The notes beneath the pieces are model-generated. The model was not told the DNA's origin and searched no databases. It saw nothing but the letters and a program-made list of their open reading frames with translations. Made by a program: the position numbers and the translations under genes. Shown one piece after another: positions 1,668 through 31,953 of a stretch of DNA of 42,071 bases; position 1 is the stretch's first letter; each line of letters begins with the position of its first letter. The stretch comes from Xanthobacteraceae bacterium (GTDB lineage Bacteria; Pseudomonadota; Alphaproteobacteria; Rhizobiales; Xanthobacteraceae): NCBI GenBank assembly GCA_030044555.1, contig JASHVN010000280.1, forward strand, positions 1 to 42,071. Reading direction: 5' to 3'.

Positions 1668-3431
1668 TTATCCCTCGAGCATAGCAGCGAGCCGGCGGCC
1701 TGCCTCGCTAACAGCGGCATCCCACTGGCCGAGCCGCTCCTGCGCGACGGCCTCGACTGAAGGATACCACAGCGCCCGGCCGTCCCTGGCGGCCCAATAC
1801 CAAGGATAGCCGCAGGGCACGAGAACGATGCCGGGCCTGCCGAGAGCGCCGGCAACATGGATGGCGAAGCTGTCGGCGGCGACCACGGCGTCGAGATTGG
1901 CGACCGCTGCGATCATCTCGGCCGGAGCTTTGATGTGAACGCCGGCGTCGATGGGGCGCGAATTTCGCCGCAAGTCGTGCCGGAATTCGTCGGTCACCAG
2001 GCTCACCGGCGTCGCATTCTCGGGCAACAGCCCGGTGATCTGCTCCATCGAAAGGCCAAGCGGTCCGCCGTCCCATACGATGCCGACCAGAGGCCGCGGA
2101 AACTCGGCAAGGGCATCGCGCCATTTGGCTAACAGCTGCGGCTCGGTCCGCAGATAGGGAATATCACCGGCCACCGTATCGGCGTCGGGGGCGAACATCC
2201 GCAGCAATGCCGGCAGCGGCGTGACCGAAAGCGGTGGTGCAGGTTCGTCGGGAATGATTTGCTCTTTCAAACTGGCGAGCAGTGTCTGGTAACGCGGTTC
2301 AGCCACGACGCGCACCACTTGCTTGGCGGCAAGCCGGTTCACCAGGCGCGCGAGCACCACGAATTCGAGCGCGCCGGTGGTCGGCGGCACGGCCACCCGC
2401 GAGACGTGCGGCAAGGCGCCCGGCTCACGCGGAGGAAATCGGCCGAGCGTGAGCTCCAAGCTCAGCTTCAGCGCCCGGATCGCCTCGTTGTTCGGCTTTA
2501 GCCGCAAGGCGTGGTCGGCGATCTTGACGGCGTCCTCGAACCGGCCGGCCAGTTGCAGCGCCCGCGCCAGCGACAGCGCGGGGGCTGGATCGGATTGGCG
2601 CGTGCGTACGACCTGGCTGAGTTCGGCGATTCCGCGTTCCACGTCGCCTCGTGCGATCATGACGCGAGCGATGATCTCGCGCGCGCCCAAATGGGCCGGC
2701 GCATAAGCGAGCAGCTTGCGGCACGTGGCCTCGGCCTCGGCCCATAGCCCGGCGGCAGCCCGGCAATAAGCGAGATGCTGTAGCGCCGACGAATCAAGCG
2801 GCGCGCGCAGGTGCGCCCGCTCGGCAAGCTCCAGGGCGCGGTCAAATTGTCCGCGCGTGATGTAGAGCGCGGACAGATTGCGCAACGCTGCCGGATCGTT
2901 CGGCGCCAGCTCGAGTGCCCGCAGCAACGCGGCCTCGGCGGCCGAGCGGTTGCGCGCTGCGAGGTCGATCACGCCGAGTTGGACAAACGCGCGCGCTTTG
3001 GCGGGATCATGACGCACGGCCGCCTCGGTCAGCGCGCGCGCTTGCGCGATGTCGCCGCGGCCCATGAGCGCGCGCGCCAGCGCCAGCTTCATATCCTCGT
3101 TGTCTGGGGCGAGCGCCGCGGCGCGCTCCAGGCAGACCACCGCCTCGTCGAAACGCCCATGCAGTTCATGGGCGATCCCCAGATTGGCAACAAGCTCGGC
3201 ATGGTCGGGATAGGCGGTTGCGGCCTCGGCCAACAGATCAAACGCGGTTCCGATCCGCCGCCGCGCCAGCTCCAGGCCGGCCCGCGCATTGAGCGCATCC
3301 GGATCGCCGGCGCCGCTGCCGATGTCGCGCAGCACCGCTTCCGCTTCGTCGAGCCGCCCTCCGGCAATGAATTCCCGCACGGCTGCGACGCGGTCACGCA
3401 TGGTCGGGGCATGGCTCACCGCCGCTGGCAT
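1668..3431 (-). CDS. TPR-repeat protein with a C-terminal glycosyltransferase-family-9 (heptosyltransferase)-like domain
   Basis: 587-aa ORF. The N-terminal ~330 aa are degenerate 34-residue TPR units (A..A...P....A...LG......G....A). The C-terminus (...IVWDGGP...ADSFAIHVAGALGRPGIVLVPCGYPWYW...) resembles the GT9-like fold often fused to TPRs. A 4-nt gap separates it from the upstream gene. Confidence 0.7.
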   Translation of the reverse strand: MPAAVSHAPTMRDRVAAVREFIAGGRLDEAEAVLRDIGSGAGDPDALNARAGLELARRRIGTAFDLLAEAATAYPDHAELVANLGIAHELHGRFDEAVVCLERAAALAPDNEDMKLALARALMGRGDIAQARALTEAAVRHDPAKARAFVQLGVIDLAARNRSAAEAALLRALELAPNDPAALRNLSALYITRGQFDRALELAERAHLRAPLDSSALQHLAYCRAAAGLWAEAEATCRKLLAYAPAHLGAREIIARVMIARGDVERGIAELSQVVRTRQSDPAPALSLARALQLAGRFEDAVKIADHALRLKPNNEAIRALKLSLELTLGRFPPREPGALPHVSRVAVPPTTGALEFVVLARLVNRLAAKQVVRVVAEPRYQTLLASLKEQIIPDEPAPPLSVTPLPALLRMFAPDADTVAGDIPYLRTEPQLLAKWRDALAEFPRPLVGIVWDGGPLGLSMEQITGLLPENATPVSLVTDEFRHDLRRNSRPIDAGVHIKAPAEMIAAVANLDAVVAADSFAIHVAGALGRPGIVLVPCGYPWYWAARDGRALWYPSVEAVAQERLGQWDAAVSEAGRRLAAMLEG

Positions 3432-4111: not shown

Positions 4112-5071
4112 TCACAGGAGCAGGAAGCTGCTTGCCGTAACCGTTTTAAAGCCGCTTGTCTTCGCCTCCAGGTCCGTGACGGCGGATAGCAGTTGCTTCT
4201 GCTTCGCGCTCAATTCGGCGCCCTTCAGCTCGCTTACGATCATTTCCGACTTTGTTTGGCATATCGTGCCGTTGAGCCCGACGATCTTCAGGTCGGAGAC
4301 TGGGGCGCTCTTGAAATCGGTCGTTTGGCAGACTTTCGCACTGGTAATGGCAGTCTTCACGTCGTTGCCGATCACGGTGTTGATATACGAGCCAGTCACC
4401 GCCTTAAAGTAAACCCCGAACTGGAGAGCGAACTGGTTGCCGAATATCAAAGAATTATCGGAACCAAAGAAGATTTCAACGTGGGGGAGTATGCCTATCT
4501 CCATCCAATATCCGAGGACCACCTCTAGTTTTCCAATGATGTTCAGATCCGTTTCGGCACCGATCATCAAAGAGAATTTTGTACCGAAAAAGAAATCCTC
4601 GCTGGAGCCGACCGTTTGGGTTTGGGAGTTTCCAATGGTGAGCACCGATTTCGGGCCATTGGCGGTCTGGTTGATGGCGTACCCGTTCAGGGTGATACTG
4701 CCGCCCGTGCCGTTGGCGTCGGCGGTAATAGTCACGTCGTTCGCCGCCGAGAGCGTGTAGTTGCCGTTCTCTAACGTATATTGGGCGTCGCCGCTCGTCA
4801 CTTCGGTGGTGTGGCCATTGCCGATCAACATCAAGGCGGCGCCTTGCACGTTGGCTTGGAAGTCCTTGTCGGTGTAGGTGAGCACGCCCAAATTTTGGGT
4901 GGTGTAGGTCGTACCGCTGGCCGTGGTGGTCAGACCGGTGACCAAGCTCTCCTCGTCGTGCGAGTAGGCGCCAAGCCGCAAATAGCTCGATTGCGTCAGA
5001 CCGCCGGTGCGCGTTTCCGGCACGACAATGCGAACAAAGGCGTGTGACGTGTTGTTCTGGGTTTCTGCCAT
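4112..5071 (-). CDS. Stand-alone octapeptide-repeat beta-helix protein (gp5_C / VgrG-needle-like); function unknown
   Basis: 319-aa ORF. Gly falls at residues 147,155,163,171,180,187,193,203,211,219,227,235, an 8-residue period over about 12 turns (TVGSSEDF/FFGTKFSL/MIGAETDL/...IFGNQFAL/QFGVYFKA/VTGSYINT/VIGNDVKT). It is Thr/Gly/Asn-rich and has no signal peptide. Its centre is AT-richer than the neighbouring genes. Confidence 0.6.
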   Translation of the reverse strand: MAETQNNTSHAFVRIVVPETRTGGLTQSSYLRLGAYSHDEESLVTGLTTTASGTTYTTQNLGVLTYTDKDFQANVQGAALMLIGNGHTTEVTSGDAQYTLENGNYTLSAANDVTITADANGTGGSITLNGYAINQTANGPKSVLTIGNSQTQTVGSSEDFFFGTKFSLMIGAETDLNIIGKLEVVLGYWMEIGILPHVEIFFGSDNSLIFGNQFALQFGVYFKAVTGSYINTVIGNDVKTAITSAKVCQTTDFKSAPVSDLKIVGLNGTICQTKSEMIVSELKGAELSAKQKQLLSAVTDLEAKTSGFKTVTASSFLLL

Positions 5072-18444: not shown

Positions 18445-20343
18445 ATGCGCCTCGTACTTGCAGTCGTTGGAGAGAACGCAGAACCTTTGGGCCGCGACGC
18501 AAAAAGGTCGTTCGGGCTCGAGGGCGGTACCTTAGGGCGGGGAGTCAGTTGCACTTGGCAGCTTCCTGATCCGACCAACACCCTGTCGGCGAATCACGCT
18601 GTGATCGCCCACAACGGTCTCGGCTTCACGGTCACCGATACGAGCACGAACGGCGTCTACATCAATACTGTGGATATGCCGCTCGGCCGCGGCAATACCG
18701 CGCCGTTAGCCGACGGAGATATGCTCTATCTGGCCAATTATGTCGTCGCAGTTTCGATCGAGAATGATCCGGTCGACGACCGGCAGCGCTTGGGTATGGG
18801 CGCGAACGCCATGCGCATTGGCGGCGCGGGATCGGGAGCAGGGCGACTGTCAATGCCGCAGGATAATCTCCTTGCGCCCGGCCCTGCTGCGCCTGTGCCG
18901 CCGCCCGATCCTCTCCGCCGGGCGGCGGATAAGCAGGGCGGCTGGCTCGGACCAGGCGCGATGCCGCCACCGGTCGATCCGCTCGCTGGCTTCGATGCCC
19001 GGCCTGCGCCGGGCAGGCACGGGCCCGGATCCCTGGGCTCCGCGCCGGGCGCTTCGCAGCAAGTCCGCGATCCGTTGCAGATGCTTGAAGACGACGCGCG
19101 CGTAGATACCGGAACGGGACTAAACGACGACCTGTTGTCGAGTCGTCCGCTCCGGTCCGGGATTTCTGCGCCGGCTGCCGGCGTCGCACCACAGCGCGCC
19201 CCATCAGGGCCGTTGCCGCCAACACCGAATTTCGATGATTTGCTGGGAAGTGGGCCGCAAAGCCTCGATCGGCCCTCCGCTATTGTCCGGTCCGATCCTC
19301 TCGCGCCCGCTTCGCTCGGCAATTTGAACGCCCCGCGCGCTCCCCTGGGCCAAGCACCAAATCCGTCCAGCCCTCATCCGCAAAAATCCAAGATCATTCC
19401 CGACGATCTCGATTTCAGCGACTTGCTGACAGGCAATCAGCCAGCCCAGCCGCCCGCTGCCGCCCCAGCATCCTCGCCGATCCCCGGCTTCCCGCCGGCC
19501 GACCTCGCCGGCCTGTCGGAGCCGCGCGCGCCGATGCCGGCCGCGGCGCAACTGGCCGCGCCGATACGAAAGCCGCTCGGTCCCGCTCTTGCCAACGATC
19601 TTGTGGCGCTACGCGGACCCGCCACAGCGGCGCCGGCGCCTGGCGTGCCCGTGCTCGACCGCTTGGCAATTCTCAAGGAGCGGGCGGCCCAACGCTCCGC
19701 CGGCGCGCCGCCGGAGAGTGCGCTTGCGGCTCCGCTTGTGGCTGCGCCGGCAGGCGATGAACTCGCCGCGTTCTGGACCGCGCTCGGCATTGATTCCAGT
19801 TTGATCCCGCCGGAGCGGCGTCAGGAGGTGCTGGCCGACCTCGGCCAGGCGCTGCGCGAAATGGCCAGCGGCCTGCAATCGGTGCTGGCCGCGCGCGGCA
19901 TGATCAAGAACGAATTCCACATCGAGCAAACGCGGATTCGCTCGGGCGACAACAACGCCTTCAAATTCTTGAAAAGCGGCCTGGACGCGCTGCGCAAATC
20001 GCTGACCAGGGAACAGGGCTTTCTTCCGCTCGCTCGCTCCGTGCGCGAGGGATTTCAGGACATCAAGGCGCACGAGGTGGCGGCCATGATGGCCATGCGC
20101 GGCGCGGTCAGCAACGTGCTTACGCGCATGAGCCCGCAGCGGCTCGAGACCGACAGTGCGACAACGGGCCTGTTCGGCGGCCGGGTCGACAAGGCCAAGC
20201 TGTGGGACCGGTTCGTCGAACTGCACACCTCGATGGTTAATGATATCGATCGCACGACGCGCGCCTACATCGCTGACGAATTCGCCCGGAGCTATAATTC
20301 TCAGGTGGCGGCGCTGCGGGAAGCGGAGGGGACGCCAAAATGA
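18445..20343 (+). CDS. tagH: FHA-domain T6SS protein TagH (Fha-type) with a long Pro/Ala-rich linker
   Basis: 632 aa. The N-terminal FHA fold is GRGVSCTWQLPDPTNTLSANHAVIAHNGLGFTVTDTSTNGVYIN. Residues ~120-420 are a P/A-rich disordered region, followed by a conserved C-terminal TagH-type domain. An AAGGTGGAGG RBS lies upstream. Confidence 0.88.
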   Translation: MRLVLAVVGENAEPLGRDAKRSFGLEGGTLGRGVSCTWQLPDPTNTLSANHAVIAHNGLGFTVTDTSTNGVYINTVDMPLGRGNTAPLADGDMLYLANYVVAVSIENDPVDDRQRLGMGANAMRIGGAGSGAGRLSMPQDNLLAPGPAAPVPPPDPLRRAADKQGGWLGPGAMPPPVDPLAGFDARPAPGRHGPGSLGSAPGASQQVRDPLQMLEDDARVDTGTGLNDDLLSSRPLRSGISAPAAGVAPQRAPSGPLPPTPNFDDLLGSGPQSLDRPSAIVRSDPLAPASLGNLNAPRAPLGQAPNPSSPHPQKSKIIPDDLDFSDLLTGNQPAQPPAAAPASSPIPGFPPADLAGLSEPRAPMPAAAQLAAPIRKPLGPALANDLVALRGPATAAPAPGVPVLDRLAILKERAAQRSAGAPPESALAAPLVAAPAGDELAAFWTALGIDSSLIPPERRQEVLADLGQALREMASGLQSVLAARGMIKNEFHIEQTRIRSGDNNAFKFLKSGLDALRKSLTREQGFLPLARSVREGFQDIKAHEVAAMMAMRGAVSNVLTRMSPQRLETDSATTGLFGGRVDKAKLWDRFVELHTSMVNDIDRTTRAYIADEFARSYNSQVAALREAEGTPK

Positions 20344-29373: not shown

Positions 29374-30858
29374 ATGGCCGACAACAATCTTGTCATCGAA
29401 CTCGAATTCGTCAACAAGCCCAACATCAAGCTCGACGCGCAGGGATTCGAGGGTAGGGAGAGCATTTCGCAGCTCTTCAGCTTTCGCGTCTATGCGACGA
29501 CGACGTCGAACGATCTCGATACGGCATCGCTGGTCGGCGAGCGGGTCAAACTGAAGGTCACGACCGCCTGCGGCCATTGGATCGCGTGCGGCCTTTGCAC
29601 GCAGGTCGAAGAGCTCGATCCAACCGCGACGGACGAGCGCGTGCTGCAATTCCTCATCAAACCGCGCTTTGCCGCGGCGCAGCTCGTGGTCGAGAACCGC
29701 ATTTACGGGCCGGCGCAGGCGGTAGGCGTTGACGACGTGGTCAAGCAGGGCATCGGACGAGCCCCGATCGCCATTCCGGCCGAGTACAATCTCGACTCCT
29801 ATCCCAAGCGCAATTACGTCGTTCAATACAACGAAAGCCATTTCGCCTTCATCTCCCGGCTCTGCGAGCGCGACGGGATTTTCTACTTCTTCAAGCATGA
29901 GGACGGCGGCGAGAGCGTCGTGTTCGCCGACAAGAACCTGGCGTTCCCCAAAATCAAGTTCGGCGGCCGGTCGTCGATCCTCTATTCGCATCATCGCGAT
30001 CGCCATATGGGGCGCCAAGCCGATGAAGCTGCCGTGCTGGTGTTCGGCCAGCGCCGCACGCTCTCGAGCAAGACCATCAAGTTGCGCGACTATAACGAAA
30101 CGATGCCTTCCGTTGTCTCCGGCAATAACGACGTCGGCCAAGGCAACGCGTTTCTCGGCAAGGTCGAATGGTTTGGCGGACATTTCCCGGACGAAGGCGC
30201 GGCGACCAAGCTGGCGCGGATCCGGGCGGAGCGGATTGCGGCTGAGCAGACGACCTATGTGGTGGAGACCGATGCGCCGGAATTGCGCGCCGGCGCCATC
30301 TTCGAAATGCAGGGGCATCCGCGATTTGACGGGGAATATCTTGTCGTCAGCGCCACGCATTCGGGCTATCGGCCGGCTCCTGTCGGCTTCCAGGCGTTTG
30401 CGCAGGACGGCCGTGCCTATCGCAACAGCTTGCAGTGTATCCGCTCCGATGTCCCCTATCGGCCGCCGCTGGCAACGCCGGTGCCGCTCGGATACGGCTT
30501 GCATACGGCTAAAGTGGACGGCGAAGCCTGGAACGGCCGCGCCGAAATCGACGGCCAGGGCCGGTACAAGTTGCAGCTCACATTCGTCGACGAAGCGGCG
30601 CCGAGGGGGCGAGGCAGCGATTATGTTCGCAAGATCGAGCCCTATGTCGGACCGAGCCAGACTGGCCTGCATTTTCCGCTGGTCGCAGGCACCGAAGTTC
30701 TCGTCGCCTATATGAACGGCGACATCGACCGGCCGATCGTCATTGGCGCCGTCCACAACCCCGACATGATCGACTTGGTGACGGCGGACTCAAATCTGTT
30801 CAATCGCCTCAAGTCGCAGTCGGGCGCCTTCTTGGAGATTTTCGACGGTCCCGTATGA
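29374..30858 (+). CDS. vgrG: T6SS spike protein VgrG (TssI), short form: gp27-like plus gp5 OB-fold only, no C-terminal beta-helix
   Basis: 494 aa. The N-terminus ...AQGFEGRESISQLFSFRV...LVGERVKLKV... and the block ...YVVQYNESHFAFISRLCERDGIFYFF... are typical VgrG. It ends ...GTEVLVAYMNGDIDRPIVIGAVHNPD...KSQSGAFLEIFDGPV*, which is where the beta-helix of canonical VgrGs starts. Confidence 0.9.
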   Translation: MADNNLVIELEFVNKPNIKLDAQGFEGRESISQLFSFRVYATTTSNDLDTASLVGERVKLKVTTACGHWIACGLCTQVEELDPTATDERVLQFLIKPRFAAAQLVVENRIYGPAQAVGVDDVVKQGIGRAPIAIPAEYNLDSYPKRNYVVQYNESHFAFISRLCERDGIFYFFKHEDGGESVVFADKNLAFPKIKFGGRSSILYSHHRDRHMGRQADEAAVLVFGQRRTLSSKTIKLRDYNETMPSVVSGNNDVGQGNAFLGKVEWFGGHFPDEGAATKLARIRAERIAAEQTTYVVETDAPELRAGAIFEMQGHPRFDGEYLVVSATHSGYRPAPVGFQAFAQDGRAYRNSLQCIRSDVPYRPPLATPVPLGYGLHTAKVDGEAWNGRAEIDGQGRYKLQLTFVDEAAPRGRGSDYVRKIEPYVGPSQTGLHFPLVAGTEVLVAYMNGDIDRPIVIGAVHNPDMIDLVTADSNLFNRLKSQSGAFLEIFDGPV

Positions 30859-30877: not shown

Positions 30878-31234
30878 ATGACTGTGTGGCGTCCAGCTGA
30901 CCGCGAAATTGATGCCGTGCTCGAGGCGGTGGCGCACGCGATCCGTGCGACGATCGCTCCCGGGGCACCCGTTCAGTCGCCGCCGCCGTCAGCGGATGGG
31001 ATTCGCGAGGTCCAGTTGGACGACGGACGCATTGTCCGCACAAAGTTATTCGCGCAGGAAATGAAGCAGGAGCACCGCGGCGCCCGCACGGTGCTGATTT
31101 ACGCCGTCGGCGGCAGCGCAGTGGTCGATCGCGACGGCTACGCGGTCAGCGGCCAAGCCGTTCTCGATATCGTCACGCGCGCCTTCCTCGACGTGGACTG
31201 TCATTTGGAAGCGGTCGGTGCCGTCACGCCATGA
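30878..31234 (+). CDS. Hypothetical 118-aa protein between vgrG and hcp
   Basis: ATG 19 nt after the vgrG stop and high GC3 throughout. No signal peptide, TM segment or recognisable motif. Confidence 0.55.
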   Translation: MTVWRPADREIDAVLEAVAHAIRATIAPGAPVQSPPPSADGIREVQLDDGRIVRTKLFAQEMKQEHRGARTVLIYAVGGSAVVDRDGYAVSGQAVLDIVTRAFLDVDCHLEAVGAVTP

Positions 31235-31440: not shown

Positions 31441-31953
31441 GTGTCAATGGAAGCCTACATGACGATAAAGGGGAAGAAGCAGGGCGATATTCATAAGGAT
31501 GCATCGAAGCCGAAGAGCCTGGGCCAGCACGCCAGGAGCGATTCTTCGATGCAGGAGAAGATCACCATCGTCGGCTTCGGGATGGGAATCGTGGTGCCGC
31601 GCGACATGTCGAGCGGCGTCGCTACCGGCGCTCGTAATCACCAGCCGGTGGTTTTCACCAAGTTCTTCGACCGCTCGTCGCCACTGCTCTGGCAGGCGCT
31701 GGCCCAAAACGAGCTGCTCGATGAGGTCGTGGCCGATTTCTATCGCACCGATCCGGGTGGAATGCCGAAGCCGGAGAATTTCTTCAAAATCACCTGGAAA
31801 CACGCGACCTTGATCGAGGGTCGGTCCTATGTGCCGTTGACCATCAACCCGCAGAACAACTTCTTCCAAAACATGGAGGATTGGTCCTTCACCTATAAGG
31901 AGGTGAAGTGGGAGCACGTCCCGGAAAGCACCAGCGGCGAAGACAGGTGGTAA
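31441..31953 (+). CDS. hcp: T6SS inner tube protein Hcp (TssD)
   Basis: 170 aa, Hcp1-family pattern (...AYMTIKGKKQGDI...ITIVGFGMGIVVPRD..SG.ATG.R.HQPVVFTKFFDRSSPLLWQAL...W.FTYKEVKWEH). An AAGGAG RBS at 31428-31433 favours GTG 31441 or ATG 31447 as the start. Confidence 0.92.
   Translation: MSMEAYMTIKGKKQGDIHKDASKPKSLGQHARSDSSMQEKITIVGFGMGIVVPRDMSSGVATGARNHQPVVFTKFFDRSSPLLWQALAQNELLDEVVADFYRTDPGGMPKPENFFKITWKHATLIEGRSYVPLTINPQNNFFQNMEDWSFTYKEVKWEHVPESTSGEDRW

Follow-up and report, generated by a model that had tools for sequence, protein, structure and literature searches.

How does a type VI secretion system (T6SS) build its spike when its VgrG ends where the needle should begin? This question is raised by a 42,071-nt contig of a Xanthobacteraceae bacterium (GenBank assembly GCA_030044555.1, contig JASHVN010000280.1), the whole of which we call the window. 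A complete T6SS spans positions 11321–36631 on its plus strand. To our knowledge, every current model of such a system treats VgrG as one chain, in which gp27, an OB fold and a prism follow one another and the tip of the prism binds a PAAR protein. The sole VgrG within the window is 494 residues long. It aligns to a canonical 757-residue VgrG only through residue 462 and stops 32 residues later, and so lacks the prism. Instead of following gp27 and OB in the same chain, a protein of 319 residues, here called X, is translated from its own ATG, with the hub gene (gp27 and OB) ~24 kb away on the opposite strand. We propose that X is probably the needle-forming C-terminal half of VgrG, separated from the gp27–OB hub by gene fission.

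The relationship between the two genes is revealed by their fused relatives. A search of 1.84 billion representative proteins with a profile of X gave 81 matches, which comprise stand-alone proteins of ~300–460 residues and ~18 full-length clusters (724–1035 residues) matched at their C termini. Nearly the whole profile is covered in some full-length VgrGs, such as P0032, P0036, P0040 and P0049 (E values down to 5e-66), and the homology spans the whole of X, which corresponds to the last ~350 residues of the fused proteins, the region that lies past the OB fold in bona fide VgrGs. When ten of the long proteins were scanned with Pfam, Phage_GPD was found at the N terminus of all ten and Phage_base_V in eight, followed by the X-like region. 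VgrGs of 780–1035 residues combine a counterpart of the short VgrG with a downstream counterpart of the whole of X. In P0032, residues 20–499 match the window VgrG (34% identity, 5e-88), which ends there, residues ~509–545 match the N-terminal motif of X, and residues 611–872 match X further along (4e-31). At their junction, the fused proteins have '...SG.LFEI.DG', followed by a variable linker and by 'YVRL..P...SY[LI]RLG.Y'. Correspondingly, the window VgrG stops at '...FLEIFDGPV*' (in full, '...SGAFLEIFDGPV*'), and the next conserved element, 'FVRIVVPE...SSYLRLGAY', opens X, which starts 'MAETQNNTSHAFVRIVVPETRTGGLTQSSYLRLGAY'. The alignments to fused VgrGs and the matching junction therefore identify the window genes as two halves of one ancestral polypeptide, and homology marks X as the part of a split VgrG that lies past the OB fold.

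A preliminary description of the window had suggested that X supplies in trans the needle that the 494-residue VgrG lacks. The fused relatives, the gene order and a locus with adjacent halves support this idea; the contact between VgrG and X is what we infer. Its label of X as 'gp5/VgrG-type' is justified by the homology to the C termini of real VgrGs and not by similarity to the Pfam gp5 repeats, which is not significant. The description had also compared the start of X with the NELRFED-like start of VgrG helices, but the true counterpart of that element is 'AFLEIFDG' at the C terminus of VgrG itself, not 'SSYLRLGAY' of X.

The gene orders of the split and fused modules are otherwise identical, which places X in the vgrG slot. 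Three fused loci, L003, L004 and that of Azorhizobium doebereinerae (L020), have the order TvpAB–TvpB–DUF4150–VgrG(full)–DUF3540–TPR–orf118(–Hcp–ClpV). The split order, TvpAB–TvpB–DUF4150–X–DUF3540–TPR, is found in the window, in L002, in L021 and in 15 Bradyrhizobium species, nine of which carry a short VgrG–orf118–Hcp unit less than 10 kb away. Each of the loci examined shows genetic linkage of X to the DUF4150 gene, on which the proposed placement of the PAAR-like tip on X is based. In the window it starts 35 nt past this gene, the spacing behind a PAAR-like gene that had been read earlier (the neighbour is DUF4150/Tox-PAAR-like), and it ends 19 nt ahead of the next gene. An AGGAG sequence lies 7 nt upstream of the X ATG, providing a Shine–Dalgarno sequence and start codon of its own. 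In Bradyrhizobium sp. RDT10 (L016, 5340–10957), the TvpAB, DUF4150 and X open reading frames (ORFs) are broken or shortened and the short VgrG is intact; the module could be decaying, or sequencing errors could account for the broken frames.

An intermediate state is seen in one metagenomic locus, L027 (ENA ERZ27256378), where the two halves lie side by side at 10001–12801, in the order DUF4150–VgrG(528 residues)–14 nt–X(399 residues, E 1.6e-79)–DUF3540–TPR–orf118–Hcp. The 528-residue VgrG ends in a Thr-rich tail, '...EIFDGPAAATTTTT*', and the X homologue is read in another frame. The 528-residue product occurs on three contigs and a 527-residue relative, P0134, ends alike, which makes an assembly error unlikely. 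This arrangement suggests that a frameshift within the Thr-rich linker split the gene and that the halves later dispersed; the cut site in the fused forms already accommodates linkers of 5 to ~100 residues. In a rough neighbour-joining tree, the fused forms are basal, and the window and Bradyrhizobium needles group in a single clade of stand-alone proteins. Further stand-alone groups fall among the fused forms, so fission of VgrG into hub and needle may have occurred repeatedly, a conclusion in which our confidence is low. A small gene of ~118 codons, orf118, always lies just upstream of hcp (in the window, L001 15347–15739, L003 15264–15620 and L027 15240–15593). It marks the ancestral gene order, because it stands behind the short VgrG in split loci and behind the TPR gene in fused loci.

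X carries an octapeptide repeat with a fixed glycine and alternating hydrophobic residues. Its twelve glycines, at residues 147, 155, 163, 171, 180, 187, 193, 203, 211, 219, 227 and 235 (spacing ~8), agree exactly with the earlier reading of the ORF, and the period of 8 proposed there is borne out: over residues 140–240, the period-8 glycine power exceeds the best of periods 3–15 in all 20,000 shuffles. In an alignment of 21 family members, Gly 147, 155, 163, 171, 211, 219, 227 and 235 are 90–100% conserved, and the octad register runs on to residue ~268 as a D.K motif. Both the period-2 and the period-8 hydrophobic signals are conserved across the family. The repeat is irregular at first, with a spacing of 8–9 residues from 62 to 139, then consists of strict Gly-ending octads from 140 to 235, and closes with the D.K octads. 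Conservation across the family peaks in the N-terminal motif, in which R14, P18, S28, Y30–G34 and Y36 are invariant. A regular expression for this motif, designed post hoc from these sequences, matches each locus or gene copy no more than once, and four loci not at all. Its matches fall only at the N terminus of a needle or at the junction of a fused VgrG, and nowhere else in 1.03 million six-frame residues.

Both halves are maintained as separate proteins. The 33 homologues of the window VgrG listed at an identity of at least 54% measure 491–528 residues, except for one fragment of 467 residues, and none of the 33 contains an X-like region. Among the tails read (a listing that omitted P0126), most of these close relatives end at or just past the '...EI.DG' strand, the exceptions being the fragment P0131 and five proteins with tails of 6–10 residues. 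Seven of the eight listed distant short VgrGs (30–34% identity) likewise end at the equivalent strand or within a few residues of it. Among Bradyrhizobium orthologues, the ratio of non-synonymous to synonymous substitution rates (dN/dS) is 0.21–0.25 for X and 0.12–0.21 for the short VgrG, with dS unsaturated at 0.3–0.57, and the value for X is similar to those of other module genes. Judged by these ratios, X is under purifying selection. X is also the protein with the lowest identity between the window and Bradyrhizobium, at 40%; the other module proteins and VgrG are 53–67% identical.

The six proteins of the minus-strand operon, in the split order given above, place X in a familiar context. 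Its accessory gene set (a DUF2169–pentapeptide protein, a second pentapeptide protein, a DUF3540 protein and a single-domain DUF4150 protein) is of a known kind, that of the class III Tvp systems or synteny type C. The class III system of Serratia marcescens Db10 comprises VgrG1, TvpAB, TvpB, TvpC and Paar1 (Monlezun, Earl & Coulthurst 2026, EMBO J / bioRxiv 10.64898/2026.02.23.707444). In the model for this system, a PAAR–TvpAB–TvpB cap sits on the prism tip, and TvpC, a member of the DUF3540 family, mimics VgrG by combining an OB fold with a short prism (10.64898/2026.02.23.707444). Its equivalents are the DUF2169 'synteny type C' (PMC11883445) and tagAB/tagB/tagC/tagD of Burkholderia T6SS-5. 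The window and Serratia share the four accessory proteins in one operon with a spike gene. In Serratia, however, a full-length VgrG serves as the partner, and its prism is unusually long (186 Å), whereas the slot in the window holds the post-OB part only. The full-length vgrG of class III clusters (700–800 residues or longer, with a long prism) is thus absent from the window, and present in L003, L004 and L020. The window further differs from Serratia in its gene order, with DUF4150 before the spike gene and DUF3540 behind it, in an additional conserved TPR gene, and in a prism region that matches no Pfam family.

On our proposal, three X chains would form the octapeptide-repeat prism, and the N-terminal hairpin of X (FVRIVVPE...SSYLRLGAY) would pack on the last strand of the hub VgrG (...FLEIFDG), rebuilding non-covalently what the fused relatives hold covalently. 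With VgrG split, the hub and needle of the spike would therefore be joined non-covalently. The far end of X would bear the DUF4150 PAAR-like tip, pre-assembled and chaperoned by the class III proteins TvpAB, TvpB and TvpC, which are co-transcribed with X. As in Serratia, the TvpAB–TvpB–PAAR cap would first be built on TvpC; it would then be passed to X, not to VgrG, with X as the acceptor prism. We infer the trimeric prism fold, the docking of the hairpin, PAAR binding at the tip of X and the hand-over from TvpC.

Structure prediction offers a partial view of such a needle. An AlphaFold2 (AF2) monomer of X reached a predicted local distance difference test score (pLDDT) of 41 with an alignment of 21 sequences and of 82.7 with 78 sequences. 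The latter model contains the N-terminal hairpin (strands 8–18 and 28–34, pLDDT >90), some hairpins at 100–130 and a helix at 284–304. Residues 130–283 are predicted confidently as an extended chain that has no strand partners within the monomer. This is the pattern expected of one chain from an intertwined oligomer in the model, and falls short of proof.

Several results weigh against a canonical needle. A Foldseek search with the X model against PDB and BFVD, a check that had been suggested for likeness to gp5, VgrG and tailspikes, gave no significant match (all E > 0.07); VgrG chains rank first, the top PDB matches being VgrG1 (4uhv), VgrS (9mlp), VgrG1 (7q5p) and trimeric phage fibres (E ~2, best 1.7). 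No curated prism model recognises X at its gathering threshold. Gp5_C (PF06715) reaches 18.3 bits, below its cut-off of 20.4, and Gp5_trimer_C (PF22178) 13.7, below 30.9, each of these sub-threshold matches occurring in one of the 21 family members, the window protein alone, and DUF2345 (PF10106) gives no significant match to X. More broadly, X belongs to no curated family in Pfam or NCBIfam (the window protein in both, all 21 family members in Pfam). Comparison of X with canonical VgrGs by hhalign yields a probability of 5–7%; all alternative alignments fall in the prism part, and none is significant. The same method finds no relation between X and the DUF3540/TvpC family, and the family profile retrieves only chance matches among PDB sequences (aspartate racemase, a GCN4 chimera). 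The predicted helix 284–304 separates the repeat from the C terminus, where a PAAR-like cone would have to seat. In the fused VgrGs, low-complexity linkers flank the hairpin, with 5 to ~100 residues before it and Ser/Thr-rich stretches of tens up to ~190 residues after it, and the prism may therefore be tethered to the hub instead of rigidly continuous with it. Lastly, the 494-residue protein is the only VgrG of the window, and a full-length VgrG elsewhere in the genome is possible.

The divergence of X and its lack of a matching Pfam prism family would also fit a protein that is mainly cargo or a specialised effector, that is, a hydrophobic, membrane-active β-helical toxin derived from an 'evolved' VgrG extension and carried by the spike without being its structural needle. 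X is the most diverged protein of the module between the window and Bradyrhizobium, and three consecutive hydrophobic residues precede each octad glycine, which makes the outward face partly hydrophobic. In Serratia, membrane depolarisation is linked to VgrG1 without an assignable separate effector, and the activity may reside in the long prism (10.64898/2026.02.23.707444). Nevertheless, we regard an effector role in place of a structural one as unlikely. The X-like region is the sole candidate for a prism past the OB fold in the fused VgrGs, where only short or low-complexity linkers lie between the two; without it, these proteins would lack a platform for the PAAR-like tip. No toxin domain is recognised in X at Pfam and NCBIfam thresholds, and no candidate immunity gene lies beside it, as the DUF4150 and DUF3540 genes flank it in all loci. 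An effector role is not needed to explain the gene, and structural and toxic roles are not mutually exclusive. Because the outer face of X is partly hydrophobic and the toxicity linked to VgrG1 in Serratia is unexplained, X could possibly have a membrane-active role in addition.

Could TvpC, the DUF3540 protein, provide the prism for the PAAR-like tip instead, with X a Tvp accessory or scaffold that never enters the fired spike? Serratia TvpC is a trimeric protein of OB fold and prism that binds Paar1, TvpAB and TvpB (10.64898/2026.02.23.707444), and a protein of L023, in which a DUF3540-type OB fold is fused to an X-like region, links both families. Yet fused loci contain TvpC just as split loci do, and it therefore does not compensate for the split, which led us to reject it as the needle. 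There is no gp27 in TvlC-type proteins, and the short VgrG already has an OB fold, which that of TvpC would duplicate. In Serratia, moreover, TvpC is replaced before firing (10.64898/2026.02.23.707444), and it is X, not TvpC, that bears the sequence continuing the VgrG polypeptide in the fused relatives. We consider this assignment very improbable. It is scarcely credible that a vgrG was disrupted and left X and the short VgrG as its decaying remains, in a system that is dead or uses a VgrG from elsewhere: the adjacent split in L027 does resemble a frameshift in a Thr-rich linker, and the one Bradyrhizobium locus L016 does have broken TvpAB, PAAR and X frames, but in 15 Bradyrhizobium species and in numerous metagenomic lineages both halves are intact and their ends conserved, X keeps its own Shine–Dalgarno sequence and ATG, a vgrG mutant of Bradyrhizobium sp. 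LmicA16 (a strain that may or may not have the split arrangement) has a symbiotic phenotype according to a review, and the dN/dS values of both genes, together with their conservation, led us to reject X as a pseudogene.

The reading of X as the needle half of a split VgrG has partial precedents in other spikes. In phage T4, gp5 is proteolysed to gp5* and gp5C, and the needle β-helix, with its octapeptide repeat, is a separate polypeptide that remains attached in the trimeric spike. The window resembles T4 in its separate needle polypeptide and in a break past the OB-containing part. In T4, however, the split arises by proteolysis of one product with a lysozyme domain intervening, whereas here it is genetic and the halves lie in different operons; T4 gp27 is a separate protein, whereas here gp27 is fused to OB. 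In phages P2 (gpD and gpV) and Mu (gp44 and gp45), a hub and a tip-carrying trimeric needle come from separate genes. A hub protein and a separately encoded needle, presumably trimeric in the case of X, are common to these phages and the window. The phage break falls between gp27 and OB and leaves the OB fold on the needle, unlike in X. Nearer to the gpV type than X is P0041 of L023 (6898–8502, 534 residues), which combines a DUF3540-type OB fold with an X-like region in the vgrG slot and is followed by an ordinary DUF3540 gene; it constitutes a third architecture, similar to the gpV-type spikes of phages. The Francisella VgrG (NCBIfam NF041249), from a different T6SS subtype, is a prism-only spike of ~164 residues. 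It shares with X the condition of a T6SS needle polypeptide without gp27 and OB, but has no sequence relationship to X, and we know of no hub-only gp27–OB VgrG that partners it.

A 'split vgrG locus' in some Acinetobacter strains is mentioned in a single sentence (PMC6838775). It involves a different VgrG type with no DUF2169 or Tvp link, and no analysis of a junction, family, conservation or partner is given there. The study of the Serratia system by Monlezun et al. (2026) makes no mention of Bradyrhizobium, Azorhizobium, rhizobia, Hyphomicrob-, Alphaproteobacteria or truncation. Neither a split spike nor the organisms discussed here are mentioned in the Tvp papers and in a 2026 review, and our literature searches found no description of such an arrangement, nor of a T6SS hub and needle from two genes that are joined non-covalently.

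Distant relatives extend the pattern. In L024 (12477–15231; Minicystis sp. MAG GCA_047601355.1, Myxococcota) and in the metagenomic locus L025 (5072–8642), hub-only VgrGs of 490 and 503 residues are flanked by DUF2169 genes and by two paralogous stand-alone needle-like proteins each (398–459 residues). These needle-like proteins start 'GKYLRIEVPNF...MTSYLHLGAV', differ in the middle and end in an octad repeat that matches the X profile (E 1e-8 to 1e-13). Genes for DUF4150–Peptidase_S41 fusion proteins lie nearby. The paired genes beside hub-only VgrGs suggest interchangeable needles. Generalising, the short VgrG could tentatively be viewed as a generic hub into which separately encoded, interchangeable needles plug via the conserved N-terminal hairpin ([FY].[RH][IL].VP ... 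SY[LI][RH]LG), a view that we hold with somewhat less than even confidence. Bradyrhizobium and its relatives would then have one needle, and Minicystis and one metagenomic lineage two paralogous needles per hub-only VgrG. If true, this would be an unrecognised route to T6SS spike diversity, would need a non-covalent spike joint that survives firing, and would make the Tvp pre-complex a device for loading a chosen needle–tip unit onto the hub.

Table 1. Positions of X, its parts and associated genes in the window
Feature	Position	Strand	Basis or remark
X, 319 residues, probable stand-alone C-terminal (needle) half of split VgrG	4112..5071	−	ORF, Shine–Dalgarno sequence, homology to fused VgrG C termini, VgrG slot, dN/dS
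X residues ~62–268, strand-rich repeat, proposed trimeric β-prism	4268..4888	−	Periodicity, shuffle test, AF2
X residues ~10–36, N-terminal motif FVRIVVPE...SSYLRLGAY, proposed docking hairpin	4964..5044	−	Conservation, fused junctions, AF2
X residues 284–304, predicted amphipathic helix, ahead of the last ~15 residues	4160..4222	−	Both AF2 runs, pLDDT ~65–70
TvpAB-like DUF2169 and pentapeptide-repeat protein, 1060 residues	6575..9757	−	DUF2169 E 1e-69; class III Tvp / synteny type C
TvpB-like pentapeptide-repeat protein, 358 residues	5509..6585	−	Pentapeptide families E 1e-38; corresponds to TvpB/TagB
DUF4150 / PAAR-like (PIPY) tip protein, 132 residues	5107..5505	−	PF13665, E 4.8e-31
TvpC-like DUF3540 protein, 218 residues	3436..4092	−	PF12059, E 2e-28
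TPR protein, 587 residues, last module gene in split and fused forms	1668..3431	−	Loci compared
Hub-only VgrG, 494 residues: gp27, OB and one strand, end ...GAFLEIFDGPV*	29374..30858	+	Phage_GPD 28–332, Phage_base_V 395–461
orf118, small conserved gene	30878..31234	+	Behind short VgrG here, behind TPR gene in fused loci
Hcp	31441..31953	+	PF05638

The neighbouring genes (Table 1) provide several further observations. The C-terminal ~250 residues of the TPR protein show a weak match to heptosyltransferases (GT9, E 0.008), and its C-terminal half has no sequence match in PDB. As the needles and fused VgrGs bear Ser/Thr-rich linkers, it is conceivable from these sequence features that the TPR protein is a glycosyltransferase acting on them. 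The DUF3540 protein weakly matches (E 0.022) the C-terminal part of NF041249, the prism-only VgrG family of Francisella, which fits the published prediction of an OB fold and short prism for TvpC. The product of orf118 has no Pfam match. Between the needle module and tssA, at 10126–11066 on the plus strand, lie genes for an anti-sigma-type kinase of the HATPase_c_2 family (136 residues) and a single-domain response regulator (144 residues); at the equivalent position, L002 encodes a HATPase_c_2 protein and a response regulator–SpoIIE phosphatase. This pair may be a partner-switching regulator of the window T6SS.

Two other loci deserve comment. In L029 (Bradyrhizobium sp. B120, 13892–14848), a 318-residue protein that contains a NEL (novel E3 ubiquitin ligase) domain is encoded between the short VgrG–Hcp unit and the needle module, and is a candidate host-directed effector. 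L028 (GCA_023243025.1, 'Microbacteriaceae bacterium K1510') has the gene order of window positions 20000–41900, with a VgrG that is 72% identical; the order common to both is TssJ...PpkA–short VgrG–orf118–Hcp–ClpV–sigma54 activator–kinase–ParA–histidine kinase. The actinobacterial label on a proteobacterial T6SS suggests that this assembly is mislabelled or contaminated.

A conserved and selected split at the OB/prism boundary would mean that the hub and needle of a T6SS spike can be separate subunits. It predicts a defined docking element, consisting of the terminal strand of the hub and the N-terminal hairpin of the needle, and such a motif may be usable for engineering exchangeable T6SS needles. 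The homologues of X, which carry the name 'hypothetical protein' in the sources that name them and no Pfam domain, would become a core spike component. The split module would also be a natural system in which to follow the hand-over of the PAAR-capped tip in class III Tvp systems, a step inferred in Serratia. Finally, the finding bears on annotation and on the search for effectors in Bradyrhizobium symbionts, in which the T6SS is reported to influence nodulation.

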